This document shows, in pieces, positions 7,540 to 38,186 of a DNA stretch of 64,000 nucleotides; the first letter of the stretch is position 1; each line of letters begins with the position of its first letter. Below the pieces are notes generated by a model. It was given only the letters and a program-made list of their open reading frames with translations. It searched no databases and was not told the DNA's origin. The position numbers were made by a program, and so were the translations under genes. Source of the DNA: Thermoanaerobaculia bacterium (GTDB lineage Bacteria > Acidobacteriota > Thermoanaerobaculia > Multivoradales > Multivoraceae); NCBI GenBank assembly GCA_963664405.1, contig OY761158.1, positions 3,680,001 to 3,744,000 on the forward strand, given 5' to 3'.

Positions 7540-8711
7540 CCTTGGTTCAGAACGACGAGACCGCGACCCTTCCCACCCTGACTCCACAGGAGATTCAGCG
7601 CTACAGCCGGCACCTGATCATGCCAGAGGTCGGAACCCTGGGCCAACAGAAGCTGAAGGCCGCCAAGGTGCTGATGGTCGGTACTGGAGGGCTCGGATCG
7701 CCCCTTGGCATGTACCTGGCGGCCGCCGGCGTCGGCACGATGGGATTGGTCGAGTTCGATACGGTCGAGGAATCCAACCTGCACCGTCAGCTTCTTTATG
7801 GGCTTGCCGACGTTGGTCGGCCGAAGATCGAAGCTGCGATGGAGAGGTTGAACGTGGTCAACCCGCACGTGAACCTGATTCCTCATCCGGTGCGTCTCGA
7901 GTCCTCCAACGCCTTGGACATCTTCAAGGACTACGACTTGGTGGTCGACGGTACGGACAACTTTCCTACCCGCTATCTGGTCAACGACGCCTGTGTGCTG
8001 CTCGGCAAGCCGAACGTCTACGGCTCGATCTTCCGTTTCGAGGGTCAGGCATCCGTCTTCTGGGCGGAGAAGGGCCCCTGCTACCGCTGCCTCTTCCCCG
8101 AGCCGCCTCCTCCAGGCCTCGTACCGTCCTGCGCCGAAGGTGGTGTGCTTGGGGTCCTGCCCGGGATCATCGGGTCGCTGCAGGCAAACGAGGTGATCAA
8201 GCTCATCATCGGCCAGGGCGAGCCGCTGATCGGGCGCCTCGTCCTCTTCGACGCACTGCGCATGAAGTTCCGAGAGCTCAAGCTCCGACGCAACCCGGAA
8301 TGCCCGGTGTGCTCCGAGAACGCGACCCAGACCGAGCTCATCGATTACGAGCAGTTCTGCGGCTTCACGCCAGAGGAAGAGTCTCTGGGCGACGACATCG
8401 ATATCACCGCCACCGAGACCCAGGAGCTGATCGACGGGGGCACGAAGGTCACCATCTTGGATGTGCGTAATCCTCCCGAGTATGAGATCTGCCGAATCGA
8501 GGGTTCGGTGCTGATTCCGTTGCCTGAGCTGCAGGACCGGCTTGGCGAGCTCGACCCGAGGGACTTCTACGTCGTTCACTGCCACCATGGACCGCGATCC
8601 ACGCGGGCGGTGAGTATGCTGCGCGACGTCGGCTTCGCCAAGACAAAGAACCTCGCGGGCGGAATCGATGCTTGGAGCCTGGAAGTGGATCCGGACGTCC
8701 CGCGCTACTAG
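7536..8711 (+). CDS. moeB: MoeB/MoeZ adenylyltransferase-sulfurtransferase with C-terminal rhodanese
   Basis: RYSRHL, GTGGLGS, SNLHRQ, CYRC…CPVC zinc sites, rhodanese loop CHHGPRS. Confidence 0.95.
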   Translation: MTLVQNDETATLPTLTPQEIQRYSRHLIMPEVGTLGQQKLKAAKVLMVGTGGLGSPLGMYLAAAGVGTMGLVEFDTVEESNLHRQLLYGLADVGRPKIEAAMERLNVVNPHVNLIPHPVRLESSNALDIFKDYDLVVDGTDNFPTRYLVNDACVLLGKPNVYGSIFRFEGQASVFWAEKGPCYRCLFPEPPPPGLVPSCAEGGVLGVLPGIIGSLQANEVIKLIIGQGEPLIGRLVLFDALRMKFRELKLRRNPECPVCSENATQTELIDYEQFCGFTPEEESLGDDIDITATETQELIDGGTKVTILDVRNPPEYEICRIEGSVLIPLPELQDRLGELDPRDFYVVHCHHGPRSTRAVSMLRDVGFAKTKNLAGGIDAWSLEVDPDVPRY

Positions 8712-8879
8712 TGGGCCGTAACACCCAAACGATTAGCGCCTGAGCGGCCCTCGCGGCCGATCTCTGCGTTACGCTTCCTCGACATATTGCCCGATATGCC
8801 TGCGTCAGCGCGCCTTGATCTCGACCACGAATGACTCACTCAGCCACTAAACGTTCGAGTGTTCGGGACACGACACTAG
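8708..8879. repeat. CTAG-bounded long hairpin element, copy A (near-identical to copy C; right end diverged)
   Basis: Starts at the CTAG containing the moeB stop; core CTCGACATATTGCCCGATATGCCTGCGTC; aligns to 18195-18362. Confidence 0.88.
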
Positions 8880-8907
8880 ACAGCTGGGCCGTTTGCGGCC
8901 TGAGCTC

Positions 8908-10173
8908 ATGAGGCGCCGTTGGCTTCGCGATCTCGGGAGCTATTCCGTGATTTTGCTGGTGTTGGGCGCCCTGGCGCTCTTCGCCATACTGAGTAGTAGA
9001 GAGCCCGATTCGAAGCTCTTGGAATCGGTTCAGAGCCTGCCGCTGGTGGGCCCTTTGGCACGAGGATTTCGCGATCGATATCTGACACCGAAGCCGGGGC
9101 GATCTCGCGAGCTGGCGACGACGGAGTTCTCATTCGACCTGTCGTCTCGAGATCGAGCCGACGACCAGAATGGACTGCCTTGGATCGAGGGCTTCGAATC
9201 TTGGTCGGGTGATGGGCTGCCGCCTCTTGGCAACGATCCATTGCCGCCGCGACCTCTCCCCGGCCGTGAGGCTGACCCGGAGAGGCTTGCCGAAGCGCGC
9301 CTCCATCTCCGAGCAGCAAGTGCCGAAGGTCTGCGACTCGGCCCCTACCCGTTGGTCACCGATGTGATCGACGGCGCCCTGCTCGATCGTCTCTCCCGGG
9401 CCGCTGCCGGAGTTGAGGAGTTCTATATCGATCGCTATGGCGTAGAAACCGTCGGCGCTGCGCTCGAGACCGTGGTGCTCTACCGACGGGAGGAGGACTA
9501 CCGTGCTTTGCAACGTCGCTGGGCCGGGGTCGTCGGCCCTCGGGCCGCAATCGGCAGCCTCTTGAGTCAGGGCCATAGTGGCTATGGTCTTGTTGTGCTC
9601 TTCGTGGGTTCGTCGTCGGTGGATGGCGTCGCCGGCACCCTTCTTCATGAGCTGGCGCACGTGCTCAATCGCCGTGGCCTGGGTCCAGCGCTTCCCTTTT
9701 GGCTCGAGGAAGGTATAGCCGACGATGTGGGTGCGGCCCGCCCTGATACGAGCGGGGGTATCGCTCTGGGAGACTTCATTGCTCCGGCCGCGGACGAGGT
9801 GGGAACGATTCGGCTGCAGGGGCCCTTGGCCGCCCTCTCCATCCTGGCGCGGAGTCAGCGCGACGGCTCACTCTTGTCGCTGCCTCTTCTCGTCGAGCTC
9901 GAGAGAGAGCACTTTCTAGCCGAGGCCGACGCGGCCCTCCACTACGGTCACAGCGCATTCTTTGTGCGCTTCCTGCTCTCCGAAGCGAGCGGTTTGGCGG
10001 AGTCTTTCCGACGTTTCTTGGCGGGGGTCGCAGCAGGCGAGAGCGTCGCGCCCTCCGCACTCGAGCAGCAGCTAGGGGTGACTTTGGCTCAAATCGAGGC
10101 CGAATGGAGGAGGTATCTCCTGCAGCAGATCCTGCACGCTGGGCTGGGGAACGAGCTCACCGCGCCTCGCTGA
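8908..10173 (+). CDS. Membrane-anchored HExxH zinc metallopeptidase-like protein (DUF1570/gluzincin-like)
   Basis: N-terminal TM helix; LLHELAH…PFWLEEGIAD. Confidence 0.65.
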   Translation: MRRRWLRDLGSYSVILLVLGALALFAILSSREPDSKLLESVQSLPLVGPLARGFRDRYLTPKPGRSRELATTEFSFDLSSRDRADDQNGLPWIEGFESWSGDGLPPLGNDPLPPRPLPGREADPERLAEARLHLRAASAEGLRLGPYPLVTDVIDGALLDRLSRAAAGVEEFYIDRYGVETVGAALETVVLYRREEDYRALQRRWAGVVGPRAAIGSLLSQGHSGYGLVVLFVGSSSVDGVAGTLLHELAHVLNRRGLGPALPFWLEEGIADDVGAARPDTSGGIALGDFIAPAADEVGTIRLQGPLAALSILARSQRDGSLLSLPLLVELEREHFLAEADAALHYGHSAFFVRFLLSEASGLAESFRRFLAGVAAGESVAPSALEQQLGVTLAQIEAEWRRYLLQQILHAGLGNELTAPR

Positions 10174-10199
10174 TCTCGTGGCTCCCCGGGGGCGCTACC

Positions 10200-10868
10200 T
10201 TAGAGCGACTCCTCTTCTCTCCACCGCATCTCGCCGTCGGCGTAGTGCTCCTTCTTCCAGATCGGGACCTCGGCCTTGAGTCGTTCGAGAGCCAATCGGC
10301 TTGCTTCGTAGGCCGCAGTGCGGTGAGGCGAAGATACGACGATGACCACGCTGGCCTCGCCGACGTCGAGATCTCCGAGCCGATGCACGATGGCGACTCG
10401 AGCCCCTGGAGAGCCCTCCTCGAGCTGACGACAGATGGCTCTGATCCTATCCACTGCCATGGAGTGGTAAGCAGAGTAGGTAATGCCCTCTACCTCCCGC
10501 CCCTGATGCTGATCGCGAACATTGCCGACAAAGACGACAAGGGCCCCGCAGGAGGCGTGGGTCACCTCCTTGGCGATCTCGGCAACGTCGAGAACAGTGT
10601 CGACAAGAACCGGCCTCTCGTCGACCCCACCTGAGACCGGCGGCAACAAGGCCACTTCGTCGCCGTCCTCGAGCGCCTCCGTGTCGGTCACGAGATCGCC
10701 GTTGATCGCGACAGCCACCCCCTGCCAGATGCCTTCGAGCTCCGGATGCTCGCTCTCCAAGAGCCGCTTGAGATCTCGGATCGAGCTCCCCTCCGCGAGG
10801 CTCAGATGGCGCTCCTCCCGGCCGAGGATGTCGCTGACACTGGCGAAGGAGAGGAGTCGGACCTTCAT
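10200..10868 (-). CDS. moaX: MoaD-MoaE fusion molybdopterin synthase (MoaX-like)
   Basis: N-terminal MoaD ending LLPPVSGG fused to MoaE (FVGNVRD, HRLG, LKAEVPIWKKE); ATG at 10868. Confidence 0.88.
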   Translation of the reverse strand: MKVRLLSFASVSDILGREERHLSLAEGSSIRDLKRLLESEHPELEGIWQGVAVAINGDLVTDTEALEDGDEVALLPPVSGGVDERPVLVDTVLDVAEIAKEVTHASCGALVVFVGNVRDQHQGREVEGITYSAYHSMAVDRIRAICRQLEEGSPGARVAIVHRLGDLDVGEASVVIVVSSPHRTAAYEASRLALERLKAEVPIWKKEHYADGEMRWREEESL

Positions 10869-10908
10869 CTCTTCATTATAGCTCCCCACCCTCTGGTATT
10901 CTGTTGGG

Positions 10909-13080
10909 ATGAAAGGGGATACGAGCGAGGCAGCTGTTCCTTCGCTGGTCCAGCCCGAGCCCGACCTTGGGGCCGCCGAGCTCTTCATCAATCGCGAGCT
11001 GAGCTGGCTTCGTTTCAACGAGCGCGTGCTCGAAGAGGCGTTGTCTGAGGAGAATCCGCTGCTGGAGCGGGTCGGCTTTCTGTCGATCTTTGCCAGCAAC
11101 GTCGACGAGTTCTTCATGATTCGTGTTTCCGGGCTACGCCAGCAGCTCGGGTCCGGCGTGCTGGAAGCGCCCCCGGACGGCATGACGCCGAGTGAGCAGT
11201 TGGCTGCCATCCGCCAAGCCCTCCTGCCTCTGCTCGAGCGGGTCGACTCATGTTGGCGCGACGATCTAACCCCCAAGCTGCGCTCCGCCGGGGTGCGCGT
11301 GCTTGGCTATGAGGAGCTGAAGAAAAGGCAGCGAAAGCTGCTCCGCCGTCACTTCGAAGCCGAGATATTCCCTGTCCTTACGCCTCTCGCTTTCGACCCG
11401 AGTCACCCTTTTCCGCACATCTCCAGTCTCAGTATCAATTTTGCGGTGGTGATCAAGGATCCGGATCAGGGGGAGCTTTTCGCTCGACTCAAAGTGCCGC
11501 CGAGCCTTCCAAGGGTGTTGCCCATTCCCGGCGAGGCGGCGCTCGAGAGTACTTCCGAGCTTGGCCTGGCGGGGGCAGGCGATGGCGCCGAGCTGGTTTG
11601 GGTAGAGGAAGTGATCGCGGCGAACCTCAAACCGCTTTTCCCGGGGCTCGAGATCGTCGACGCATTCCCGTTTCGGGTCACTCGAGACGCCGATCTCGAG
11701 ATCGAGGAAGACGAGGCGGGGGATCTGCTTACCGCCATGGCCGATGTAGTCGGGCGACGGCACTTCGGTTCTGCCATCCGACTCGAGATCGACAGCGCGA
11801 TGCCGCCGAGGATCCGCGACATCCTGGTCAAGAATCTCGGATTGGCCCCTTATCAGGTCTATACCACGACGAGTCCCATCGGCTTGGGGGATCTGTCGGC
11901 GCTGCGAAAGCTGAACCGGCCGGATCTGAAGTTCACTCCCTTCCTGCCGACAGTGCCGGCGGCGATCACTGGCGATGCGGCGCTCTTTTCGGTCATGAGT
12001 CAACGCGACGTAGTCCTCTATCACCCCTATGACAGTTTCTCGCCGGTGGTCAGCTTCTTGAACCAGGCGGCGATCGACCCTGAGGTCCTGGCGATCAAGC
12101 AGACGCTCTATCGCACTGGGGCCAATTCCCCGATTGTCGAAGCCTTGATGCGGGCACGTGAGAATGGCAAGCAGGTATCGGTGTTGGTCGAGCTGAAGGC
12201 TCGCTTCGACGAGGAGAGCAATATCGAGTGGGCCCGAGCTCTAGAGCATGCGGGTGTGCATGTGGTCTACGGCGTGGTCGGGCTCAAGACGCACGCGAAG
12301 ATGTGTCTCGTGGTCCGGCGAGAGCGGGACGGAATCCGGCGTTATGTTCACCTTTCGACCGGCAACTACAACGCCGACACTGCTCGAAGCTATGCCGACT
12401 TGGGCTTATTCACCTGCGACGAAGGGATTGCCGGTGATGTGTCGGACCTCTTCAATTCCTTGACCGGGTACTCTCGCAAGTCTCAGTATCGCAAGCTGCT
12501 AGTGGCTCCGGTGAGGATGCGCGAGGAGATCGTGGAGCGGATCGAGAGGGAGATCGAAGCTCACGCTCGTAGCGGCGAGGGACGGCTCGCGTTCAAGGTC
12601 AATTCCCTGGTAGATCGGGACTGCATCGAGGCGCTCTATCGCGCGTCTCGTGCCGGTGTCCGGGTCGATCTTCAGGTGCGCGGTATCTGTTGTCTGAGGC
12701 CGGGAGTCACCGGCGTCAGCGAGAACATCACGGTGACCTCGATCGTCGGTCGCTTCCTCGAGCACAGCCGGATCTACTACTTCCGCAACGGGGGAGAGGA
12801 GGAGCTCTATCTCGGTAGCGCCGATTTGATGCCGCGGAATCTTCGGGGGCGTGTCGAGGTGCTTTTTCCGATCGAGGATCCCGGTCTGAGGACTGCGATC
12901 CGCGATCGCATACTCTTTTTGCACCTCGCCGATAGCGTAAAGAATCGCCGGTTGCTCAGCGATGGCAGCTACCAGCGTGTCGAGGCCGGCTCAGCCGAGG
13001 ACTCCCTCGACTCCCAGCTCGAGCTTCTCGCCGGCTCTCGCGAGTGGGTCGTGGACGATGATTCCTCGAACTCGGCCTAA
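10909..13080 (+). CDS. ppk1: Polyphosphate kinase 1
   Basis: FINRELSWL, ELKARFDEE, KTHAK, GRFLEHSR, SADLMPRN. Confidence 0.97.
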   Translation: MKGDTSEAAVPSLVQPEPDLGAAELFINRELSWLRFNERVLEEALSEENPLLERVGFLSIFASNVDEFFMIRVSGLRQQLGSGVLEAPPDGMTPSEQLAAIRQALLPLLERVDSCWRDDLTPKLRSAGVRVLGYEELKKRQRKLLRRHFEAEIFPVLTPLAFDPSHPFPHISSLSINFAVVIKDPDQGELFARLKVPPSLPRVLPIPGEAALESTSELGLAGAGDGAELVWVEEVIAANLKPLFPGLEIVDAFPFRVTRDADLEIEEDEAGDLLTAMADVVGRRHFGSAIRLEIDSAMPPRIRDILVKNLGLAPYQVYTTTSPIGLGDLSALRKLNRPDLKFTPFLPTVPAAITGDAALFSVMSQRDVVLYHPYDSFSPVVSFLNQAAIDPEVLAIKQTLYRTGANSPIVEALMRARENGKQVSVLVELKARFDEESNIEWARALEHAGVHVVYGVVGLKTHAKMCLVVRRERDGIRRYVHLSTGNYNADTARSYADLGLFTCDEGIAGDVSDLFNSLTGYSRKSQYRKLLVAPVRMREEIVERIEREIEAHARSGEGRLAFKVNSLVDRDCIEALYRASRAGVRVDLQVRGICCLRPGVTGVSENITVTSIVGRFLEHSRIYYFRNGGEEELYLGSADLMPRNLRGRVEVLFPIEDPGLRTAIRDRILFLHLADSVKNRRLLSDGSYQRVEAGSAEDSLDSQLELLAGSREWVVDDDSSNSA

Positions 13081-13436
13081 GAGTCTGCGCTCGCTTCCAA
13101 TGGCATCCGCTCAGCCTGCCATTCGAACATGCCCCCCGCCAGCTCGACAACGCGGAGGGCCCCCAGAGCGCGAAGAGACTGCGCGGCACGTCTGATCTCT
13201 TCGTCGTATTGATCGACGCCAACAACGACGAACTCGGTCCCCGGGGTCGATCCTTCAGGCAGAGCCTCGGCGAGGTCGGAGGCCCCCAGAGCGATCGAGC
13301 CCTCGATACGGGACTTCGATCGCTCTGCGGCGGATCGAACGTCGATTACGAGGAACGGTGGATGCGCGAATTGGATGCGCCGATAGAGCTCGGCGGGATG
13401 GGTCTTGAAAATGACGCCGTCGTAGTGGGGATCCAT
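13077..13436 (-). CDS. Rhodanese-like domain protein lacking any cysteine
   Basis: VIDVRS…IEGSI…LAGGMFEW rhodanese pattern; no Cys in 119 aa. Confidence 0.75.
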   Translation of the reverse strand: MDPHYDGVIFKTHPAELYRRIQFAHPPFLVIDVRSAAERSKSRIEGSIALGASDLAEALPEGSTPGTEFVVVGVDQYDEEIRRAAQSLRALGALRVVELAGGMFEWQAERMPLEASADS

Positions 13437-13570
13437 GCTCGTATGCCTCGGGTGGTGGTTGGCCCTCTCTCGGGCGCCGCCAGTGTACTGAGCGCTTCTC
13501 CAGTCTGCAAGGCAAGTGAGCCTGTACTAGACTGCCGACGATGACGTCGTGGGGAAGCCGGGTCTAGGCA

Positions 13571-14605
13571 GTGCAGCTGCTCGAGCTACATGAGCGATGC
13601 GGAGTCCGTTGGCGAGACGAACGTGGCGTTCAGGTACCGGCTTCCTATGGAGAGAGCGAAGCCGAGATCGCCGCCGCGCGCGAGGGCTGCGCACTCTTCG
13701 ACCTCTCCTGGGCCTCGCGGCTGGAATTGCGAGGGGCTGATCGTCAACGACTCTTGAATGGGCTGGTGACGTGCGATGTGCAGGCCCTGGAGCCTGGCCA
13801 GGGCGCCTTCGGCTTCTTCACCTCTCGAGAAGGCAAGGTCCTCTCGGACTTCTATGCGATGGCGCTCCCCGATCGTCTCTGGCTCGAGCTGCCTGCGGCT
13901 ATGGGATCTGGGGTCCGCGACCAGATCGAGAATCATCGTGTGATCGACGACGTCACGGTATATCCGCTGGAGGACCTTGTACCCCTCGCCATGCTTGGAC
14001 CGGGGACGGGCGCGGTGCTTGGCGAGGCTTCCTCAGAGCTGTCCAGGGATCTGCACCACAGGGGCTCTATCTGTGGCACCGACATCGAGCTCTCACGGCG
14101 ACTTCTCTATGGCGTCGAGGCTACGGTGATCTGGGTCCCGGCTTCGGTGGCGGAGATGTTCGTCGAGGATCTATTGGCGCAGAGCTCGCAAAGCGGCCTT
14201 CGACTGGTCGGTCTCGACACTCTCGAGGTGCTTCGTACCGTCGCCGGCGTGGGTCGCTGGGGCGTGGACTTCGATCAGGGCTGTTTGCCCAATGAGACTG
14301 GGCTTCTCGATCAGGCGGTCGACTTCGAGAAAGGCTGTTATCTCGGTCAGGAAATCGTGGCTCGCGTCCACCATCGCGGAAAACCGAGCTCCGAGTGTCG
14401 CGCCCTAGAGCTCGAAGGTCTCTCGGAGGAGCCCAGGGCCGGTTTAACGCTGTCGCTGTCGGAGCGCGCGGCTGGAGTGCTCACGAGCGTTGCGCACGAT
14501 CCTCGGGATCGGTGGCTCGGCATCTCGAGACTCTCTCGCGAGGCGTTGGAAAGCGGCGGTCCGCTGACTGTGGAGGGCGGAGGGGAGGCCCGCTTCAGAC
14601 CGTGA
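13571..14605 (+). CDS. ygfZ: Folate-binding YgfZ/GcvT-family Fe-S maturation protein
   Basis: KGCYLGQE signature; GcvT-like N-terminus. Confidence 0.9.
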   Translation: MQLLELHERCGVRWRDERGVQVPASYGESEAEIAAAREGCALFDLSWASRLELRGADRQRLLNGLVTCDVQALEPGQGAFGFFTSREGKVLSDFYAMALPDRLWLELPAAMGSGVRDQIENHRVIDDVTVYPLEDLVPLAMLGPGTGAVLGEASSELSRDLHHRGSICGTDIELSRRLLYGVEATVIWVPASVAEMFVEDLLAQSSQSGLRLVGLDTLEVLRTVAGVGRWGVDFDQGCLPNETGLLDQAVDFEKGCYLGQEIVARVHHRGKPSSECRALELEGLSEEPRAGLTLSLSERAAGVLTSVAHDPRDRWLGISRLSREALESGGPLTVEGGGEARFRP

Positions 14606-14981: not shown

Positions 14982-15007
14982 GTTGAATTCCTCCTAAGGA
15001 ATAACAC

Positions 15008-15037
15008 AAGATAGCGGTTATCTATTCACCAAGTCAA
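15008..15037 (-). promoter_or_regulatory. Possible sigma70 promoter for iscA
   Basis: Minus strand TTGACT-N18-TATCTT with overlapping short inverted repeat AGATAgcggtTATCT. Confidence 0.35.
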
Positions 15038-15064
15038 ATCGGGTAGCGGGATATCATCCAGCCA

Positions 15065-15772
15065 GTGCTACGGGCGATCCTCTTTGGTTTCAGTGGTGTG
15101 CTTGTCGATGATCAGCCCCTCCACTTGGGTCTCTTCCGCCGGGTTCTTGCCGAGGACGACATAGAACTATCCGATGCGGAGTATTCAAAGCTCTACCAGA
15201 GTCGTGACGACAAGGACTTTCTCTCCGCGGTACTAAGAGGCAGGGGACAGCGCTTTGACGAGGCGCTGTTGATGCGGCTACTCACCCGCAAGGCGAGCTA
15301 CTTTCGGGAGCAGATCCGGGTTGAGGGCTTTCCTTTCTTTCAAGGAGCTCTCCAATTGGTGAGGAAGGCCGCCGAGGAGTCCTTCACTCTGGGTGTGGTT
15401 TCTCGCGCCCTGCGCGGTGAGATCGAGGCGGCGCTAGAGCAGCCGGCTGTCGGAGGCCTGTTCAAGGTCGTCGTCTCTGCCGAGGATGTGGAGGAGACGA
15501 AGCCGGACCCGGAAGCCTATCGCCGCGCCCTGAGCGATCTGAACAGCGTGCCTCCGCTCCCTTCCAGGCTTTATCACCCGCATGAGGTGCTTGCGGTCGA
15601 AAACAGCGTCTCGGGTCTCGCCGCCGCACGAGCGGCCGGCTTGGTGACGCTCGGCGTATCGCACAGCTCTTCGAGTGAGGGGCTCGCCGGCGCGGATCTG
15701 GTAGTCGGGGGCTTGGGTGAGGTCCGCCTCGACGTCCTGCAGCAACAGCTGGCCGAGGCTAGCCGGAGCTAG
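15065..15772 (+). CDS. HAD-superfamily (beta-PGM/CbbY-like) protein with altered catalytic motif
   Basis: ILFGFSGVLVD (DxD replaced), KPDPEAY, AVENS..GL.AA..AG. Confidence 0.8.
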   Translation: MLRAILFGFSGVLVDDQPLHLGLFRRVLAEDDIELSDAEYSKLYQSRDDKDFLSAVLRGRGQRFDEALLMRLLTRKASYFREQIRVEGFPFFQGALQLVRKAAEESFTLGVVSRALRGEIEAALEQPAVGGLFKVVVSAEDVEETKPDPEAYRRALSDLNSVPPLPSRLYHPHEVLAVENSVSGLAAARAAGLVTLGVSHSSSSEGLAGADLVVGGLGEVRLDVLQQQLAEASRS

Positions 15773-15935
15773 TGTCCTGTATCAGTAGTTCGTCACACAA
15801 CTCGCTGGCCCTTTTGCGCGCTGCCGTCGTTGCTCCTCCTCGCAATATTGCCCAATATACCTTCGTCGTAGCGCCTTGGCAGCACCCAAAATGACTGCGC
15901 GATTTATGCAACGAACCACTGATACAGGACACTAG
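15769..15935. repeat. CTAG-bounded long hairpin element, copy B
   Basis: 18-bp perfect terminal IR CTAGTGTCCTGTATCAGT; core AATATTGCCCAATATA; starts at stop of the HAD gene. Confidence 0.88.
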
Positions 15936-15959
15936 GAGCGTGTATCTGGACTCCAATGT

Positions 15960-16290
15960 CAACAGGGGTGGGTCGGTCTTCTTGTTTTTGATAGAGGTTT
16001 CCTTGGTGTGTAATCACAGGCAGTATGGAGGTCGATGGTGAGTCAAGACAGCAGACGTATCTCCGGCCTGTAGTGGGCGATTATTAGCGCCGGGCCATGA
16101 TGAAGAAATGCGCGTGAGGGAGCCGAATCGTCCGAAAGGGCCTCGAAGGCCAACGCTCCTATCGGCTTTTCCCCCCACGCCAGTCTGACTGGAAACCATC
16201 AGAATTCTCTACTCGCGCTGTCGGAGTGTTTGTGAGTGTTCAATTTGAAGTCTTCGGGTGCGTTGGGGTCCAGAGATCGAGGCCAAGGGC
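15960..16290 (-). ncRNA. Putative bridge RNA/seekRNA of the IS1111-type element
   Basis: Non-coding region downstream of the transposase, with stem-loops whose internal-loop segments match the target (TAGGAGCGT; GTCCGA) and the IS-end junction (TTCATCAT; TATCT); RNA boundaries unknown. Confidence 0.75.
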
Positions 16291-17331
16291 TCAGGCCGTG
16301 ACTTGCCGTGGAGGCTGCAGCTGGAAGGAGGTCTCGTGGGTCCAGACCGCCCAGACAACGCGTGCGAGCTTGTTGGCGAGGGCAACGGCGGCCCGGTTCC
16401 GTCCCCGCGAGCTCTCGACTCTGAGGGCCCACTGTTCGAGCCTACCGGCGGGTCCCTTTCTCCTCGCCCAGCTGAGCACCGACCTGGCGCCATGAATGAG
16501 GAGAGTTCGTAAGTACGCGTCCCCGCGTTTGCTGATCCTGCCGAGCCACCGCCGAGCGCCACTGGAGTGTTCCCTGGGAGTCAGTCCGAGATAGCTGGCG
16601 AGATGCCGGCCGCTTTTGAAGCGGCGAATGTCTCCGATCCAAGCGACCATGGCTGTGGCCGTGAGTACGCCTACGCCCTTGATCGTCAGGAGTCGCTTCA
16701 CGGCCTCGTCCTGGCGCGCGAGGGCTTGGATCTGTGCCTCGAGCTCTTGGATCTTCGTGGTCAGCTCGTCGATGTGGTCACAGATGCTTTCGAAAAAGGG
16801 TCGCAAGACGAGCGGGATCTCGGTATCCGGATCCGCGAGCCAGACGCGGACGCGCGGCAGGACCTGGGCGCGTCCCTGGGGCAGAAAGAGCCCGAGCTCT
16901 CGTAGGTGCCCGCGCAGAGCATTGATGTGGGCGGTGCGATCGTCCATGAACGACGAACGGATGCGATGGAGCGTGGTCATCGTCTGCTGCTCGAGCGATT
17001 TGACCGGTACGGGTAGGATGTCCTCGTTTCGATGCGCCTCGAGCATGCCCGTGGTATCCGTTCGATCCGATTTATTGCGCAACACATAGCGCCGGGTGAA
17101 ATGCGGTGGCAGCAGGATCACCTCGTGGCCGAGACTCTGAATACGCCGGCCCCAGTAGTGCGCCGAACCGCAGGCTTCCATGAGGACGGTCGCGGGCTTG
17201 ATCTGCGCGAAGAACCTGAGGAATTTCGCCCTTCGCACGCGCTGCCTCTCGGCGACCTTACCCGGCTCGTAAGACACCGCGATCTCGAAGACATCCTTGG
17301 CGATATCGACTGCGATACGTGTACTCTTCAT
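16291..17331 (-). CDS. IS110-family DEDD transposase/recombinase
   Basis: AVDIAK, MEACG, KSDRTD RuvC-like DEDD; GLTPREHSSG serine loop; GRISKRGD; VALANKLAR. Confidence 0.96.
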   Translation of the reverse strand: MKSTRIAVDIAKDVFEIAVSYEPGKVAERQRVRRAKFLRFFAQIKPATVLMEACGSAHYWGRRIQSLGHEVILLPPHFTRRYVLRNKSDRTDTTGMLEAHRNEDILPVPVKSLEQQTMTTLHRIRSSFMDDRTAHINALRGHLRELGLFLPQGRAQVLPRVRVWLADPDTEIPLVLRPFFESICDHIDELTTKIQELEAQIQALARQDEAVKRLLTIKGVGVLTATAMVAWIGDIRRFKSGRHLASYLGLTPREHSSGARRWLGRISKRGDAYLRTLLIHGARSVLSWARRKGPAGRLEQWALRVESSRGRNRAAVALANKLARVVWAVWTHETSFQLQPPRQVTA

Positions 17332-17420
17332 CGTGGACTCCCTTTCTACGATCAACGTTTGCGACTTAGGTGACCCCTGGCACATAGATGCCGAAGTCAC
17401 CGGGGAGTCCATTTCATCAT

Positions 17421-17499
17421 CCGAGAATTCGGACAGGCGAGTAGTTCTTAGGCGGGGATGGGCCGGAGAACGGGCCGAAGGCGCGTTTTCTGGGGCTAG
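17421..17499 (+). repeat. Right part of a 91-bp CTAG-bounded REP-like repeat split by the IS (left part 15932-15943)
   Basis: 15932-15943 joined to 17421-17499 reconstitutes the reverse complement of 27392-27482 with ~4 mismatches. Confidence 0.9.
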
Positions 17500-17564
17500 G
17501 CTCAGACGAGGGTGGTGATCGCCCTCGTTCTCGAGGATCCCGGTGATACGATCGCCGATCCCTG

Positions 17565-18194: not shown

Positions 18195-18362
18195 CTAGTG
18201 GACCGTAACACCCAAACGTTGAGCCCCTGAGCGGCCCTCGCGGCCGATCTCTGCGTTACGCTTCCTCGACATAGTCCCCGCTATGCCTGCGTCAGCGCGC
18301 CTTGATCTCGACCACGAATGACTCACTCAGCCACTAAACGTTCGAGTGTTACGGTCCACTAG
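18195..18362. repeat. CTAG-bounded long hairpin element, copy C
   Basis: 17-bp perfect terminal IR CTAGTGGACCGTAACAC; core CATAGTCCCCGCTATG; near-identical to copy A. Confidence 0.9.
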
Positions 18363-18366
18363 TTCC

Positions 18367-21007: not shown

Positions 21008-21181
21008 TCGATCCGGCGGGGGCTCGGATCACTTCCGAGGGCGGCGCGATAGACTGCTTCCTCTTGGGCGCTCGGTCTTCGCCGATCCTGCGGGTCGGAA
21101 TGTGGATCTTGTTCGAGTTGTTTCCATAAGTAACGGGTTCTCGGCGAAGAGCGAACCGAGAAGCTTTTGAAAGGTGTGTCG

Positions 21182-21874
21182 ATGTTCTATTTCGATCCGA
21201 TCTACTTCGTCGTCTTGGCGCCGGCCATGTTGTTCTCTCTTTGGGCCAGCTACCGAACCAAATCGGCGTTCACCAAGTACTCCAAGGTCCGTGCTACGAG
21301 CGGCCTGACCGGTGCCGAGGCGGCTCGGCGACTCCTCGCCTCGGCTGGCATAAACGATGTCGAGATCGTGCGCACCGCTGGAACGCTTTCGGATCACTAC
21401 AACCCCGCCACCAAGAAGCTGGCCCTTTCAGATTCCGTTTACAGCCAGCCCTCGATTGCGGCGATCGGCGTTGCCTGCCACGAGGCGGGGCATGCCATTC
21501 AGCACGCGAAACACTATGCCCCGCTGTGGGCTCGCTCAGTGCTCGTCCCTAGTGCCGGCATCGGCTCCAAGCTGGGCTATATCGTCATGTTTCTCGGCCT
21601 GATTCTCCAGATCACGCCGCTCTTTTTGGTGGGCGTCGGTCTCTTCTCGCTGGTTCTCCTCTTCCAGCTGGTGACTCTTCCGGTGGAATTCGACGCTTCG
21701 GCACGAGCCAAGAGCCTCGCTTTTTCACAGGGGCTGATCCTCGAGAACGAGCGCGCTGGCGTGGCGAAGGTGCTCAACGCGGCGGCCCTCACCTACGTCG
21801 CCGCGGTGGTGACCTCGCTGCTGACCCTTCTCTACTACCTGATGCGGTCTGGGCTCCTCGGCGGCCGCCGATAA
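21182..21874 (+). CDS. Membrane zinc metallopeptidase (YugP/Zn_peptidase_2 family)
   Basis: LSDHYNP, CHEAGHAIQH, TLPVEFDAS, AAALTYVA. Confidence 0.92.
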   Translation: MFYFDPIYFVVLAPAMLFSLWASYRTKSAFTKYSKVRATSGLTGAEAARRLLASAGINDVEIVRTAGTLSDHYNPATKKLALSDSVYSQPSIAAIGVACHEAGHAIQHAKHYAPLWARSVLVPSAGIGSKLGYIVMFLGLILQITPLFLVGVGLFSLVLLFQLVTLPVEFDASARAKSLAFSQGLILENERAGVAKVLNAAALTYVAAVVTSLLTLLYYLMRSGLLGGRR

Positions 21875-22038
21875 GGTGCCGTGTCTCCGACATGGCTTAC
21901 CAATATCTCGGCCCCTTTTGCCCGCTGCCGTCGTCGCGACTCGTCGACATATTCCCAATATGCCTGCCTCGTCGCTCCTTGACAGCGAACAAAATGACCT
22001 CGAGCTCTTGGCAAGCCATGTCGGAGACACGGCACTAG
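21873..22038. repeat. Long hairpin element, copy D (left CTAG degenerate)
   Basis: 23-bp perfect IR GTGCCGTGTCTCCGACATGGCTT (21876-21898 / 22013-22035); core CATATTCCCAATATG; ends in CTAG. Confidence 0.88.
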
Positions 22039-27391: not shown

Positions 27392-27482
27392 CTAGCCCCG
27401 GAAAACGGGCCTGCGGCCCGTTCTCCGGCCCATCCCCCCCTAAGAACTACTCGCCTGTCCGAATTCTCGGACACGCTCCTAG
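27392..27482 (-). repeat. Intact 91-bp CTAG-bounded REP-like repeat (empty IS target)
   Basis: CTAG at both ends; hairpins TGTCCGA-ATTC-TCGGACA and AACGGGCC-TGC-GGCCCGTT. Confidence 0.88.
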
Positions 27483-27577
27483 CCTCCAGAAAGGGTCGCT
27501 ATCTTCTCGTCCGGGTGGGTAATATGACGCCGCGGACGGAGTGACCCTCTCGTGGGCATGAGATCCAGCAGGCTAAC

Positions 27578-30523: not shown

Positions 30524-30586
30524 ATCCTGAGCCGCTTTCCGGGGGGTAGTAGGAGTAAGGAGGCGGTTCGAGATAGATTCTATCTG

Positions 30587-30970: not shown

Positions 30971-31006
30971 GCCGCAACTGGGGCAGCGTTTTCTTTAGAT
31001 AGAGAG

Positions 31007-31867: not shown

Positions 31868-31914
31868 CCCCTTCGGCCCGTTCTCTGGTCCATCCCCACC
31901 TGAAAGCTACTCGC
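31864..31914 (-). repeat. Degenerate partial copy of the 91-bp REP-like repeat
   Basis: CTAGCCCC…CGGCCCGTTCTCTGGTCCATCCCCACCT…CTACTCGC aligns to 27392-27454. Confidence 0.65.
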
Positions 31915-31933
31915 ACTGCAAGATACTCGTAGC

Positions 31934-33112
31934 TTGCGTATCCTCCTCATCTGCGGCCGCTTTCCTTGGCCTCCTCGTCGGGGTGATCAACTGCGTTCCC
32001 TCCAGTGCGCAGAGGCGCTGGCCACGCGGCACCGGGTGCGGCTGCTGGTTCCGGAGCCTCCTTCGAGTCAGCTCACTCCGCCCGATCTCGATTTCGAGGT
32101 CAGCTTCTACCCGCCAAGGCGTACTCTGTTTCCGATTGCCCTCGCAGTGGCGCTGGCGCGGGGTCTGCCACTTCAGAGCGCCTTCTTCGCTTTTCAGGAT
32201 CTAGAGGACAGGATTCGACAGTTGGCGCCGCAGGCGGATCTGGTCATCCTCCAGTTGGCAAGGCTGGCCGCCTTCCTGCCCGCGGCCTCCGGCTTACCTG
32301 CGGTTGGGGACCGTCCCGTCGTTGTGGACTTGATCGATAGCCTCTCACTCGGTTTCATCGGACGCGCCTGCAGAGACCGGGCCTGGTTGGCGCCGCTCTT
32401 CCGTTTTGAGTCTCGCCGACTCGCTCGCTGTGAAGAACGCCTGGTGCGGCTGAGCCGCGCTTCGTTGTTAGTAGCAGATCGAGATAGGGAGCACATGGCG
32501 TCGAGACTCAGCACGGACTTGGCCGCCCGTCTGCGAACAGTCCCGATTGCGATGCCGCTGCGCGAGCCGGAAGTACAGGCCGCGCCGGAAGAGGCCCTCA
32601 TCTTCAGCGGCAACCTCGGGTACTTCGTCAACGAAGACGCCCTACGCTGGTTTGTGAAGGAGGTTTGGTCACCGCTGCTCGCCGCTCGACCCGGTCTGCG
32701 GTTGATCTGTGCCGGATCTCGGCCTTCGGCCACTCTTCGTCGGCTGCTTACTCGTGCCGGCGCCTCGCTGGTCGTGGAGCCTCCGGATCTCACTCGGGTT
32801 CTTGCGTCAGCGACGGTTGCTCTGGCGCCCCTCAACTGCGGTTCCGGGGTTCCTCTCAAAGTCCTCGAAGCGTGGGCCACTTGCGTCCCTGTAGTTGCAT
32901 CGAGCTGGGCGGCTGCCGGTGTCGCCGGAGAGAACGGGAGGGATCTTCTGATTGCGGACTCGGTAGAGAGCTGGATTGCTGCCATCTGCGATCTTCTCGA
33001 TCGTCCGGAGCTACGCCGGAAGTTGGTCGCCGCGGGGCGCGAGAGACTGCGCCAGGACTACTCCGCGGAGCTTGTTCGTAGTCGCTTCCTCGATAGCGTC
33101 GAAGCCGTCTGA
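31934..33112 (+). CDS. Glycosyltransferase family 4
   Basis: FPWPPRRGD, FSGNLGY.VN, GSGVPLKVLEA. Confidence 0.88.
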   Translation: MRILLICGRFPWPPRRGDQLRSLQCAEALATRHRVRLLVPEPPSSQLTPPDLDFEVSFYPPRRTLFPIALAVALARGLPLQSAFFAFQDLEDRIRQLAPQADLVILQLARLAAFLPAASGLPAVGDRPVVVDLIDSLSLGFIGRACRDRAWLAPLFRFESRRLARCEERLVRLSRASLLVADRDREHMASRLSTDLAARLRTVPIAMPLREPEVQAAPEEALIFSGNLGYFVNEDALRWFVKEVWSPLLAARPGLRLICAGSRPSATLRRLLTRAGASLVVEPPDLTRVLASATVALAPLNCGSGVPLKVLEAWATCVPVVASSWAAAGVAGENGRDLLIADSVESWIAAICDLLDRPELRRKLVAAGRERLRQDYSAELVRSRFLDSVEAV

Positions 33113-33179
33113 GCGACCGCTCGCGGCGGTGGATGGAGGGCCGTAGAGCGGTGGGGAGACATGTTAATGTCTGCTGGCT

Positions 33180-36100
33180 GTGTGCGGAATTGTGGCAGTT
33201 CTTGGGGCCCCATCCGAGCGGGAGGTAGGGGGCCGGGAGGAGCTCCTCGGAGGACTCCGCGAGGCGCTCGCGGCGCTGCCGAGCACGACCTCTTCCTTCA
33301 CGACCTGGCCGGAGGCACTGTTGCATGCGAGAGCTTGCACCGATGCGGTCGACGACCCGCTTCGCAGCAGGCTCGGCGTACGGCTCTTGGTCGACGACCA
33401 GGACTTGTGCACCGGCATCGAGTCTTTGTGCTCGCAGATCGATGAGCGAGTGGCCTCACTCGAGTCCCGGTTGGACGGCGACAGCTTTGTCTTCCAAGCG
33501 GCCGCGCTCGAGGAGATCAACGGAGAGCTGAACCAGTTGAAGGACGCGGTGTGGAAGGTCGCTCGAGACCGAGTGGGCGCGGCGCATCGCATCCGCAGTC
33601 TGGCTGGCGAGTGCCCGACCGCTACTGAGGTCGATGGCCTGGCGGCGATTGAGACGGTGCTCTCGGCGCTCGACCGTCTAGAGGTGCGGGGTCGGGACTC
33701 CTCCGGTATCCACCTGTTCGTCGATGGTGCCGGATTGACGGAGGCTGGTAGGGAGATCTCAGAGCTGGTCGCGCAGCGAGCCTCGGACCCCGTCTTTTCG
33801 TCGGGTGCTCTGCGCTCCCTCGGTGACGGCACTTTGAGCATGGTCTACAAGGCGGCCGCCGAGATCGGTGAGTTGGGAGACAACGGAAAGAAGATTCGCT
33901 GGGCGCTGCGCCAAGATCCGGTGCTGCGTTGCGCGTTGGCGGCTTCCGATGGGCGGCTCTCGGTTCTTGGCCACACTCGTTGGGCCAGCGTGGGCATGAT
34001 CTCCGAAGCCAACGCGCACCCGCTCAACCACGAGGAGGTCGATGGTGATTCGCCTCCCCAAGGGGGGGATTCGGCCCCCAATGTGGTGGCGGCGGTCAAC
34101 GGAGACATCGACAACTATTTGGAGCTACAAAAGGCCGAGCACCTACGTTTTCCGGATGAGATCACGACCGACGCCAAGGTCGTCCCGGTCCTTCTCTCTC
34201 GTCGTCTCGCGGAGGGAGTACCGCTGGTGGAGGCGTTTCGGCGCACGGTCTCGTCGTTCACGGGGTCCGTTGCGATCGCGGTCCAGAGCGCGTCTGATCC
34301 CGATCTGCTTCTGTTGGCGCTCCACGGTAGCGGACAGGCGCTCTACGTCGGGCTTCTGGACGGCAGCTACGTCGTTGCGAGCGAGCCCTACGGTGTCGTC
34401 GAGCAGGCCGACGAATACTTTCGGATGGACGGCGAGAGCGCGGGCAACGCCGAGAACCCGATTGCCAGTCGCGGCCAGATCGTGGTCCTGGACCGGCGCC
34501 GGGCCGGCAGCCTGGAGGGCATTCACCGAATCGCCTACGACGGCACTGCTCTGCCGCTGTGCGAGGCGGATGTAGAGACCGCGGAGATCACCACCAGAGA
34601 CATCGATCGAGGGGACTACCCGCACTACCTTCTCAAAGAGATCTCTCAAGCGTCCGACTCGTTTCGCAAGACGCTGCGAGGCAAGGTTCGAGAGGACAAA
34701 AGCGGCTATCTACGCGTGCATCTGGGCGCGACGGCGCTTCCTTCGCGCCTAGAGGAGCTTCTCGCTGCCGGTGTCGTTCGCAGAATCTGCGTGATCGGTC
34801 AGGGAACGGCAGCGGTTGCGGGGCAGGCGGTCGCCGAGGCTATCGGTGACGTGCTCTCGAAGCAGCGCATTCGCGTGGAGGCGATGCCGGCGACGGAGCT
34901 GTCTGGTTTTCGACTTCGTCAGGACATGGCCGATACCTTGGTGGTCGCGATCTCTCAATCGGGAACCACCACCGATACCAATCGGACCGTGGACTTGGTT
35001 CGGGCTCGCGGTGCGTTCGTGGTGTCGGTGGTGAACAGGCGTGGCAGCGACCTGGTGAATCGCTCCGACGGTGTGCTCTACACCTCCGATGGTCGCGATG
35101 TAGAGATGAGCGTGGCGTCCACTAAGGCCTTTTATGCGCAAGTGGCCGCCGGCTTCCTGCTTGCCCTGGGGCTCAAGCAAATTATCGATGTCGAGAGCTC
35201 TCGACTCGACGACGAGGACCTTCGCCTTCTCGAGGGCCTACGACAGGTGCCAGAGCTTCTCGAGAAGGTGCTCGACACGAGGTCGGTAGTACGCCGAGTT
35301 GCGAGTCGTCACGCCTCGCGTCGGCGGCATTGGGCGGTAGTTGGCAGTGGCTGGAGTCGTGTGGCCGCCGAGGAGATTCGCATCAAGCTCTCGGAGCTCT
35401 GCTACAAGTCGATCGCCTGTGACATCACTGAGGACAAGAAACACATCGATCTGTCTTCAGAGCCCCTGATCTTGGTTTGCAGCGCCGGCTTGCCTAGCTC
35501 GACTTTGGCGGACGTAGTCAAGGAAGTCGCGATCTATCGAGCCCACAAGGCGGCGCCGGTCGTGATTGCCACCGCCGGAGATGGGGCCTTCCAGGACAGT
35601 GAAGACACAATCGAGATTCCTGCCTGTCACCCGCGCCTCGCATTCGTGCTTACCACTATGGTCGGTCACCTCTTCGGCTATGAAGCTGCCCTCGCCATCG
35701 ACCGCGAGGCCCTCCCGCTGCGCGAGATGCGCAAAGAGATCGAGGAGCTGGTCCTCGCCGCCCATCCGGGAGAGCACCTTCTCGAGACCTTGGCGCCTAG
35801 GATCGAGGCCCATTCTGAGCACTTCCTGTCCCGACTCTCGAGCGGTTTCTGTGATGGACCGCTCGAGGCTTCGACCGCGGTGCGGCTGGCCTCTCTTCTA
35901 CGTTACGTTGCGGGTCTGACGCCTCTCGAGTCCTACGGCGCAGAGCATGGAAAGACTGGAGCCCCCTCGGTCGTCATCGAGGACCTGATGTCGGCTCTAA
36001 CTCGCGGCGTAGAGGAGCTGACTCGGCCGGTGGATGCCATCAAACACCAGGCGAAGACGGTTACCGTCGGGATCTCACGTGCGGACGAGGCTCTACTGAC

Positions 36101-36683
36101 CGTTCCTCTGGTCTCCTCGGCGCTCGACAGCGGCCTGCCGAGGGAGCGCATCACCTACCGCGATTTGCGCGCTCTGGCCGGGCTCGACCCGGCGGTGGCT
36201 GAGGTGGAGGGGTATACGCGATACCGCATTATCCCGAACAAAGGCGCAACCGATGCGATCGAGGTCATAGCCACTGCCGGCGTTGCTGCCGGCATCCCCT
36301 CGCGCACAGTCGTCACACCTGAGCTTCGCGGCACCAAGCATATGGTGGCCAGCGAGCGGCAGCTCTTCGTGGCACGCGGGCGCAGCGACGGCCGGACGGT
36401 GATCCTGGTGCCGGAGATCGAGAGAGCTCAGGTGAGCGGCCTACTGCTTCTTCATGTGCGCTTCGAGGAGAAGATCAGCCCCGCCGCGATGCGCGCCGTC
36501 CTCAGTTCGTATCGGAGCCGCCTTACGGCCCTGCGTGACGCAGTAATGGAGACAGAGCCGGACTTTCGCGAGGAGCTGCTCGGTGAGCTTCCGGTCGCTG
36601 ATCTCTTGACGCTGCCTATCCTGGATTTGGTCGGGCATTGGCAGACAGAGACAAAGATTCACACTGACGAGGTCATGAAATGA
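33180..36683 (+). CDS. glmS: Extended glutamine-fructose-6-phosphate aminotransferase-like protein (1167 aa)
   Basis: N-terminal CGI, GHTRWA, NAHP, NGDIDNY, SQSGTTTDT, VASTKAFY, KTVTVG. Confidence 0.78.
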   Translation: MCGIVAVLGAPSEREVGGREELLGGLREALAALPSTTSSFTTWPEALLHARACTDAVDDPLRSRLGVRLLVDDQDLCTGIESLCSQIDERVASLESRLDGDSFVFQAAALEEINGELNQLKDAVWKVARDRVGAAHRIRSLAGECPTATEVDGLAAIETVLSALDRLEVRGRDSSGIHLFVDGAGLTEAGREISELVAQRASDPVFSSGALRSLGDGTLSMVYKAAAEIGELGDNGKKIRWALRQDPVLRCALAASDGRLSVLGHTRWASVGMISEANAHPLNHEEVDGDSPPQGGDSAPNVVAAVNGDIDNYLELQKAEHLRFPDEITTDAKVVPVLLSRRLAEGVPLVEAFRRTVSSFTGSVAIAVQSASDPDLLLLALHGSGQALYVGLLDGSYVVASEPYGVVEQADEYFRMDGESAGNAENPIASRGQIVVLDRRRAGSLEGIHRIAYDGTALPLCEADVETAEITTRDIDRGDYPHYLLKEISQASDSFRKTLRGKVREDKSGYLRVHLGATALPSRLEELLAAGVVRRICVIGQGTAAVAGQAVAEAIGDVLSKQRIRVEAMPATELSGFRLRQDMADTLVVAISQSGTTTDTNRTVDLVRARGAFVVSVVNRRGSDLVNRSDGVLYTSDGRDVEMSVASTKAFYAQVAAGFLLALGLKQIIDVESSRLDDEDLRLLEGLRQVPELLEKVLDTRSVVRRVASRHASRRRHWAVVGSGWSRVAAEEIRIKLSELCYKSIACDITEDKKHIDLSSEPLILVCSAGLPSSTLADVVKEVAIYRAHKAAPVVIATAGDGAFQDSEDTIEIPACHPRLAFVLTTMVGHLFGYEAALAIDREALPLREMRKEIEELVLAAHPGEHLLETLAPRIEAHSEHFLSRLSSGFCDGPLEASTAVRLASLLRYVAGLTPLESYGAEHGKTGAPSVVIEDLMSALTRGVEELTRPVDAIKHQAKTVTVGISRADEALLTVPLVSSALDSGLPRERITYRDLRALAGLDPAVAEVEGYTRYRIIPNKGATDAIEVIATAGVAAGIPSRTVVTPELRGTKHMVASERQLFVARGRSDGRTVILVPEIERAQVSGLLLLHVRFEEKISPAAMRAVLSSYRSRLTALRDAVMETEPDFREELLGELPVADLLTLPILDLVGHWQTETKIHTDEVMK

Positions 36684-37642
36684 AGGTTCTTGTTACCGGT
36701 TCAGCCGGGTTCATTGGATTCCACGTTGCGCAAGCGCTGCTGGATCGCGGCGATGAGGTGGTCGGTCTCGACGCCTTCACCGCTTACTACGATCCTGTGC
36801 TCAAGGAGAGACGAAACTCGATACTCGAATCTCGCGAGGGCTTCACCAGCCTGCGTGGAGACATCGTCGACCTGGATCTACTGGGCTCCGCCTTCGACCT
36901 CCTCGGCGGGGGAGACATGACCCGGGTGTGTCATCTGGCTGCACAGGCGGGAGTAAGGCACTCCATCGCACATCCCGACGAGTTCATTCGCGACAACGTT
37001 GCCGGCTTCGGCAACATCATCGAGCTGTGCAAAGTACGTGGAGTTGAGGGATTGATCTACGCTTCGACCAGCTCGGTATACGGGGACAATAAGGACTTTC
37101 CCCTCCGGGAAGCCTCGAATACCGACCACCAGGTCTCCCTCTACGGCATGACCAAGAAGGCCAACGAGCTCCAGGCCTCTGTCTACAACAGCCTGTTCGG
37201 TCTGCACTGTACGGGGCTGCGCTTCTTCACCGTCTATGGCACCTGGGGCCGCCCGGACATGGCGCTCTTCTTGTTCACCGACGCTGTTCTCAAGGGACAT
37301 CCGATGAGGATCTTTGGTCACGGCAAGATGCGTCGCGATTTCACCTACGTCGACGACATCGTCGCGGGAGTGCTGGCCTCTCTCGACCGCAATTACTCTC
37401 TCGAAGTGATCAACCTCGGCTGCGGCAACACCGAAGAATTGATGGACTTCGTGCACCTGATCGAAGAGAGCTGCGGGAAGGAAGGGGAGAAGGAGTTTCT
37501 GCCGATGCAGCTCGGCGACGTGATCCAAACCGGCGCCGATGTCTCCCGAGCCCGCGAGCTACTCGGCTACGAGCCCAAGACAAAGATCTGCGACGGCGTG
37601 CCTCGCTTCGTCGAGTGGTACCGCGAGTACTTCGGCGTTTAG
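36680..37642 (+). CDS. NAD-dependent epimerase (UDP-glucuronate 4-epimerase-like)
   Basis: GSAGFIG, HLAAQAGVR, YGMTKK, RFFTVYG.WGRPDM. Confidence 0.92.
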   Translation: MKVLVTGSAGFIGFHVAQALLDRGDEVVGLDAFTAYYDPVLKERRNSILESREGFTSLRGDIVDLDLLGSAFDLLGGGDMTRVCHLAAQAGVRHSIAHPDEFIRDNVAGFGNIIELCKVRGVEGLIYASTSSVYGDNKDFPLREASNTDHQVSLYGMTKKANELQASVYNSLFGLHCTGLRFFTVYGTWGRPDMALFLFTDAVLKGHPMRIFGHGKMRRDFTYVDDIVAGVLASLDRNYSLEVINLGCGNTEELMDFVHLIEESCGKEGEKEFLPMQLGDVIQTGADVSRARELLGYEPKTKICDGVPRFVEWYREYFGV

Positions 37643-37655
37643 CCGCCTGGGCCTC

Positions 37656-38024
37656 ATGCCAGTCCTGGAAGTCGAGCTGGTGTTGCGCGACGACGAGATC
37701 CTCGCTGAGGATCTTGCCGGCCGTATCGCCGACGCTGCGGGAGAGGTTTTCGATGCAGCGCCGGGAACGACTTGGGTACGGCTGCGGACCTCGCTCCCTT
37801 CCTCCTACGGCGAAAGCGGCGGCGGGCCGCCTGCAGACACGCATCCGGTCTTCGTCCGCGTCCTCAAGGCGGACATCGCTGACGGTGAGACGCTCTCGAA
37901 TGAGGCTGTGCGCCTCACCGAGACCCTGGCGGCCATCATTGGGAGACCTCTCGAGAACGTCCATCTCATCTACGAGCCCGCGGCCCGAGGCAGGGTCGCC
38001 TTCGGCGGCAAGTTAGTCCTCTAG
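37656..38024 (+). CDS. Tautomerase/MIF-like protein
   Basis: Met-Pro start; beta-alpha-beta duplication; ENVHLIYEP…VAFGG. Confidence 0.6.
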   Translation: MPVLEVELVLRDDEILAEDLAGRIADAAGEVFDAAPGTTWVRLRTSLPSSYGESGGGPPADTHPVFVRVLKADIADGETLSNEAVRLTETLAAIIGRPLENVHLIYEPAARGRVAFGGKLVL

Positions 38025-38186
38025 ACCAGCGTTTCCAAAGTTCGCGCACATATCTCGGGCCCTTCTGCCCGCTGGCGTCGTTTCGCCTCCTCGACATATT
38101 GCCCAATATGCCTGCGTCGGCGCGCCTAGCCAGCGAACAGAATGACCTCGAGCTATGCAGCACGAACTTTGGAAACGCTGGTCTAG
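38021..38186. repeat. CTAG-bounded long hairpin element, copy E
   Basis: 24-bp perfect terminal IR CTAGACCAGCGTTTCCAAAGTTCG; core CTCGACATATTGCCCAATATGCCTGCGTC. Confidence 0.9.

Follow-up and report, generated by a model that had tools for sequence, protein, structure and literature searches.

A hairpin family with a conserved core, inserted at CTAG in a Thermoanaerobaculia genome, as a probable IS630/Tc1-mariner-type MITE

The closest described relatives of the hairpin elements analyzed here, five of which lie in a 64,000-nucleotide window (positions 3,680,001-3,744,000 of the single 6.78-Mb contig, 62.6% G+C, of a Thermoanaerobaculia bacterium), are MITEs (miniature transposable elements with inverted repeats). 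RUP of Streptococcus pneumoniae and MITEEc1, both attributed to IS630-family transposases, resemble the present family in that they are short, non-coding, and multi-copy, have IS630-like inverted-repeat ends, target TA, and fold into hairpins. The family differs from both in surrounding one core with at least six end subfamilies within one genome, in its strict preference for CTAG, and in a core that is common to several phyla and to other end classes. The Stowaway MITEs of plants, mobilised by Tc1/mariner, share with it a high copy number and the potential to form hairpins, as well as the TA duplication and the mobilisation in trans that are proposed for it, but their ends are conserved and their interior is variable, whereas here the interior is conserved. 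The Correia/NEMIS elements of Neisseria are likewise TA-flanked hairpin MITEs, and their middle part is functional in itself, as the present core may be: they use a TA target, carry a central IHF site, and are cut by RNase III, and we know of no transposase for them; unlike the present family they are confined to one genus, and the two are without sequence likeness. The size range of Correia/NEMIS, 100-160 bp, is that given in Table 1 of PMC3184786, and the name MITEEc1_IS630 appears in PMC11602168. MITEPsy1 of Pseudomonas syringae, as described in PMC3189936, also inserts at CTAG, but it is IS5-derived, 100 nt long, duplicates all 4 nt of the target, and has unrelated ends. The REP/REPIN-RAYT systems are high-copy intergenic palindromes with a single-strand fold, and their loci serve as targets of IS110-type elements (PMC3733652); their units measure 20-40 bp, in contrast to 166 bp, IS630-like ends, and TA/CTAG flanks here, and identity with them was rejected because the present copies lack a GTAG/CGTC head and their ends read CTAG TG....GT. 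The Chunjie MITE of Geobacter (178-235 bp, AT-rich, with 9-bp repeats) is different as well.

An earlier note on this DNA had described five CTAG-bounded hairpins with a conserved core and four different terminal stems, had called them the reverse of a MITE, and had proposed a possibly undescribed non-autonomous mobile element recognised by shape and core. We find good grounds to regard them as a new MITE family, a variant of the known IS630-type MITEs and not elements recognised by shape alone. No description of the family was found among open-access papers and preprints, in agreement with the suggestion that it is undescribed. As a MITE the element is ordinary; the unusual part is its core, with invariant loops, compensating stems, a preferred strand, and a presence in several phyla.

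Subfamilies, terminal repeats, and genome census

A profile built from the five window copies (A to E, Table 1) yielded 272 matches in the genome, 213 of them full-length, so that the family goes far beyond chance. When subfamilies were defined by the first eight bases of each copy, the largest was that of copy E, followed by those of C, B, and D (sizes in Table 1), then by TGTCGTGT with 11 copies and the small subfamily of copy A. An extra subfamily, TGTCCCGT, comprised five identical copies that had appeared as weak matches; the idea that they were part of a larger insertion sequence (IS) was rejected, as they form a sixth subfamily of normal size. The genome thus holds at least six end subfamilies. 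Inverted-repeat pairs bounded by CTAG and carrying MITE ends, 0.3-9 kb in size, were considered as possible larger elements and turned out in every case to be MITE-MITE pairs. Mean pairwise identity within a subfamily was 92-97.5%, which indicates recent activity. The elements are non-coding: the sole recurring mini-frame does not keep its ATG across lineages in alignments inspected by eye. CTAG was present at the start of 184 and at the end of 181 of the 213 copies, and at both flanks of 158, in a genome where this tetranucleotide is three-fold under-represented (7502 occurrences against ∼23,230 expected).

The ends of the subfamilies led to a known family of transposases. In related genomes (given G-numbers here, the source genome being G000), IS630-family elements (Pfam DDE_3, PF13358) measure 1.1-1.26 kb, are flanked by CTAG, and start CTAG T(G/A)....GT. 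The first 9-12 nt of the subfamily ends equal the terminal inverted repeats of such elements: the end of subfamily C is that of the G036 element (TGGACCGTAAC), that of subfamily D is found in G018 (TGCCGTGTC), and that of subfamily F in G021 (TGTCGTGTC), with a looser match in G001, where the likeness of the element to subfamily B and to the G004 copies extends over ∼25 nt. The ends are therefore of an ordinary transposase type. Since the stems belong to multi-copy subfamilies, the four different stems of the earlier note are subfamily terminal inverted repeats, and with their match to known IS ends the exotic mechanism falls away by the refutation test that the note itself had set; neither the label 'reverse of MITEs' nor recognition through shape and core is supported.

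According to PMC2170065, IS630-family elements duplicate TA, and among the references of that article is Tenzen and Ohtsubo (1991), on a preference for TA sites that lie within CTAG. Two paralogous empty sites with a single CTAA/CTAG were found opposite the copies at 4969290-4969455 and 6225673-6225839, which sit inside other repeats whose paralogues are unfilled. The flanks, these empty sites, and the copy number agree with the earlier proposal of a non-autonomous mobile element inserting at CTAG. Taken together, the IS630-matching ends, the CTAG/TA flanks, and the empty sites identify the family as a probable IS630/Tc1-mariner-type MITE moved in trans, to which we assign a probability of about 0.8.

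Because TAG is contained in CTAG, many copies fall exactly on the stop codon of a gene and rebuild it. Crude open reading frame (ORF) rules place 67-82 of the 213 copies next to a long ORF, at its TAG stop, among them copies A, B, and E of the window, and ∼9% of CTAG-type stop codons are occupied (67/743 crude calls). TAG terminates 1719 of the 4464 crude ORFs of the genome. In this genome and its relatives, the MITE family accounts for numerous odd hairpins between genes, together with rebuilt TAG stops.

In the mechanism that we propose, DDE transposases of the IS630/Tc1-mariner type, acting in trans, would cut and paste the family into the TA of CTAG and thereby duplicate that TA, so that copies landing on stop codons would rebuild TAG. 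The terminal inverted repeats of each subfamily would be fitted to a different IS630 lineage, and a shared hairpin core of ∼95 nt would have persisted as the ends around it were swapped or co-evolved. Selection at the level of the element presumably maintains the core, which may set the fixed spacing of ∼166 bp and the fold, and which may function in single-stranded form, as DNA or RNA, through the GAGGAG strand. The transposase at work in the source genome and the role of the core are inferences here, whereas the copy number, the subfamilies, the CTAG/TA flanks, the empty sites, the matches to IS630 ends, and the covariation are observed.

Several observations weigh against this assignment. 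For subfamily E, the largest, no IS with corresponding ends (ACCAGCGTTTCC) was found, and the source genome yielded no transposase with matching ends: it has only one full IS630 element (1245 bp) and one truncated copy, whose ends, CTAGTAC..., match no MITE subfamily. A DDE_3 match was present in only 4 of the 12 relatives that carry the MITE, and nothing core-like was found inside the related IS630 elements. No empty allele was seen in four public runs, whose contigs break at the copies and contained no exact skip of copy E, a result that is not evidence against polymorphism. Finally, the preference of the fold for one strand (88/90 copies) and the replication-linked orientation bias, both described below, are unexpected for a plain double-strand cut-and-paste element.

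The conserved core

Conservation is higher in the core than at the ends, as the earlier note had held for the five window copies, and this extends across phyla. RNAalifold analysis of 13 diverse copies from eight genomes predicted 61 pairs, 46 of them with compensatory double changes. Paired cells amounted to 91.5%, compared to 68.9% in shuffles and 35-42% when partners were slid, and 0/500 shuffles reached the observed values. Set around and between the covarying stems are invariant unpaired blocks, which on the better-folding strand read CAAGG, CGACGCAGGC, GTCGAGGAG, and AACG. Among 90 distinct copies from named metagenome-assembled genomes (MAGs), RNA of the GAGGAG strand was the more stable in 88, by a mean of 13.6 kcal/mol, and in 80 when the central 110 nt were folded alone. 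A strand-neutral count was less striking (84 G:U versus 51 A:C cells and 25 versus 13 pair columns).

Matches to copy E occurred in 12 of 40 relatives, mostly over its positions 33-130; the copies there have CTAG TG...CA ends of their own and lengths of 166-168 bp, as here. A covariance model built from the core and scanned over sampled genomes detected it in 42 of 151 genomes from the phylum (one of them unpublished) and in 9 of 101 genomes from the phylum to which a Nitrospiraceae MAG belongs. The exact core pattern was found at no fewer than 103 loci, and the records among the matches listed carry the labels Thermoanaerobaculia/Acidobacteriota, Nitrospira/Nitrospiraceae, Geobacteraceae, 'delta proteobacterium', Gemmatimonadota, and others; a Phycisphaerales match looks like chance. 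The core lies between at least three end classes (Table 1), most of them CTAG-flanked. The source genome contains 13 class-2 elements, either of 183-199 bp with a diverged core or of 57-84 bp without one. A shorter TA-flanked hairpin that has the core blocks and different arms is present on plasmid pUYM01 of Undibacterium sp. YM2 (NZ_AP018442.1; locus L191, 1470-1590), a cultured betaproteobacterium. A phage collection contained no match.

Two tentative readings of the core follow, each of which we would put well below even odds. The core may be a putative functional structured RNA that hitch-hikes on MITEs, as a processing or stabilising hairpin or as a protein-binding decoy with a GAGGAG loop. 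The covarying stems around invariant unpaired blocks and the greater RNA stability of the GAGGAG strand speak for such a role, as does the excess of core-bearing over core-less forms with the same ends (115 versus 3 for subfamily E and ∼10 versus 3 for class 2). In contrast, orientation in tandem gene contexts showed no bias relative to the transcription of the neighbouring genes (50 versus 56), the margin in the fair count of G:U against A:C cells is the modest one given above, and neither a conserved promoter nor a terminator was found in the copies, where the one promoter-like site (copy B) is at chance level. Comparison with Rfam produced no match at the gathering score in the window, as the earlier note's suggestion of an undescribed element would have it, and 21 copies searched with E values up to 10 returned miRNA-hairpin noise only. 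HDV-like ribozymes, SRP RNA, attC, dif, oriT, CRISPR-repeat mimicry, and a mini-ORF were also considered; in a comparison made by eye, on which no claim rests, none was colinear with the core or conserved among the copies. If the core does act as RNA, it would be a new widespread bacterial motif.

The other reading, which is equally speculative, is that the core is a self-standing functional module of structured single-stranded RNA or DNA (the GAGGAG strand) that MITEs with three or more unrelated types of ends have spread over at least four phyla because it promotes their success. It might enhance transposition in cis, or its fold might evade the removal of hairpins at the replication fork; or else it may be of use to the host as an RNA element. 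A cis role in transposition would show what a mini-transposon needs besides its ends, and if the module reading is true, a widespread unnamed structured motif lies inside 'junk' repeats.

Target duplication and strand orientation

Departures from CTAG mostly concern the outermost base of a flank (left/right): TTAG/CTAG in 8 copies, CTAG/CTAA in 4, GTAG/CTAG in 2, and TTAG/CTAA in 2. None of the 11 copies with a left-hand TTAG had TTAG on the right, and none with a right-hand CTAA had CTAA on the left. These pairs fit duplication of TA in an NTAN target, with an element that ends G...C; the evidence is supportive, not decisive, and could be blurred by point mutation. A 4-bp direct repeat would predict matched flank pairs, so the pattern favors TA duplication. 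One CTAG is common to neighbouring (tandem) copies.

That the family might instead be an IS5/IS1182-type MITE that duplicates the full 4-bp CTAG, in the manner of MITEPsy1, for which PMC3189936 reports duplication of CTAG or YTAA, seems to us improbable. The flanks CTAG...CTAG cannot by themselves tell a 2-bp from a 4-bp duplication and are compatible with both, and the genome does contain several CTAG-flanked ISs of other families, such as a 1562-bp IS with 9 copies. However, the non-CTAG flanks do not form matched pairs, and the MITE ends match the IS630 family and not these other ISs.

The GC skew of the contig places the origin near 2.74 Mb and the terminus near 6.76 Mb, giving unequal replichores of ∼4.0 and ∼2.8 Mb; gene-strand bias is absent in the crude ORF set (48.8% co-oriented). 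Relative to this skew, the CCTCCTC version of the element is found 130 times on the G-rich strand and 83 times on the other (p = 0.0016), with a similar division by local skew (129 versus 84) and the same direction in all five larger subfamilies. On one reading, copies that would expose the stronger-folding strand on the lagging-strand template may disappear more frequently; alternatively, the bias may arise at insertion. The modest replication-linked bias offers a natural test of long-palindrome survival at the fork.

Least probable of all, and very doubtful in our judgment, is a single-strand element recognised by its structure, as the earlier note had it, in which an HUH (Y1/Y2) or other enzyme reads the core, cuts at a fixed distance, and moves the hairpin: the conservation of the core beyond the ends across phyla, the constant length (165-168 bp), the strand-asymmetric fold, the orientation bias, and 13 Y1_Tnp matches in the genome would suit it, but the inverted repeats at the ends are symmetric and identical to IS630 ends, the bias is only 61:39, one core rides with unrelated end classes, and an apex-inserted Y2 element described below lacks core halves at 29 homologous loci from other genomes. 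Identity with an IS200/IS605-type palindrome-associated transposable element (PATE) was rejected on the symmetry of the inverted repeats and the small orientation bias.

The Y1_Tnp (IS200-like/RAYT-like) matches occupy 13 places in the source genome, with open frames of ∼300-440 aa, and one lies ∼400 bp from a long-variant copy. In two E copies (Table 1), the apex loop (CATATTG^CCCAATATG) is the exact insertion point of a 2.5-kb element with genes for a tyrosine recombinase and a Y2 transposase of the IS91 family. Either the apex is a specific target site of this element, or a MITE moved as a unit together with its cargo. Homologues occurred in 36 other genomes among 150 sampled in the order; core halves were found beside 0/29 homologous loci from other genomes and beside 0/5 paralogues in the source genome. 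As the core halves were confined to the source-genome locus, the element was treated as incidental and not as a parent or mover of the family.

Copies in the window and neighbouring repeats

The five copies occur with the nearly constant lengths that had been described (Table 1). Their full-length alignment has a mean column identity of 68%, it contains both the common apex and the downstream AATGAC of the earlier note, and folding returned a single end-to-end hairpin for each copy. The description of the copies as CTAG-bounded is right except for the left end of copy D. For copy E, the duplicated TA under the IS630 model would be 38022-38023 and 38184-38185.

Table 1. Positions and properties of the hairpin copies, end classes, and apex insertions. 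Copies and core are numbered within the window.
Feature	Position	Strand	Length	Subfamily or class	Genome copies	Context
Copy A	8708..8879	+	172 bp	C-like, TGGGCCGT	4	Left CTAG contains the TAG stop of a ThiF/rhodanese gene (7536-8711)
Copy B	15769..15935	+	167 bp	TGTCCTGT	20	Left CTAG contains the TAG stop of a HAD hydrolase gene (15065-15772); right CTAG adjoins an IS110-family IS
Copy C	18195..18362	+	168 bp	TGGACCGT	28	Between the genes for thymidine kinase and for a hydrolase, the latter convergent
Copy D	21873..22038	+	166 bp	TGCCGTGT	15	Left flank AAGG, a decayed CTAG; immediately 3' of a Zn-peptidase gene (21167-21874), after its TAA stop codon
Copy E	38021..38186	+	166 bp	ACCAGCGT, commonest	115	Adjoins the TAG stop of an ORF
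Conserved core of copy E	38056..38151	-				Minus is the better-folding GAGGAG strand
End class			165-168 bp	IS630-like CTAG TG....GT
End class			181 bp	CTAG CCCGGATTATTCATGA		In Nitrospira
End class			160-168 bp	GAGCTTGTGAATGAA
Apex-inserted element	6272499-6275033 and 6758933-6761464 of the source contig		2.5 kb

The earlier statement that no enzyme gene is adjacent to the copies needs qualification: an IS does adjoin copy B, but it is an unrelated element. This IS110-family IS (15932-17431, 1500 bp) sits between the right CTAG of copy B and a small repeat, carries its transposase gene on the minus strand (16291-17412; Pfam DEDD_Tnp_IS110 and Transposase_20), and has three near-identical copies in the genome. 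It was considered as a mover of the hairpin family and judged to be a separate insertion sequence.

A second, smaller family of CTAG-bounded repeats (∼80-92 bp) with a hairpin of its own is represented in the window at 27392-27483 and 17420-17500. About twelve longer E copies (243-257 bp, e.g., 657302-657544) contain this small repeat at an internal CTAG, which indicates nested insertion among CTAG-targeting elements. The end of the small repeat, GAGCCTGCG..., resembles the ends, GAGTCTGCG..., of the 1562-bp IS, and its depth in public contigs was 30-60x that of the flanks.

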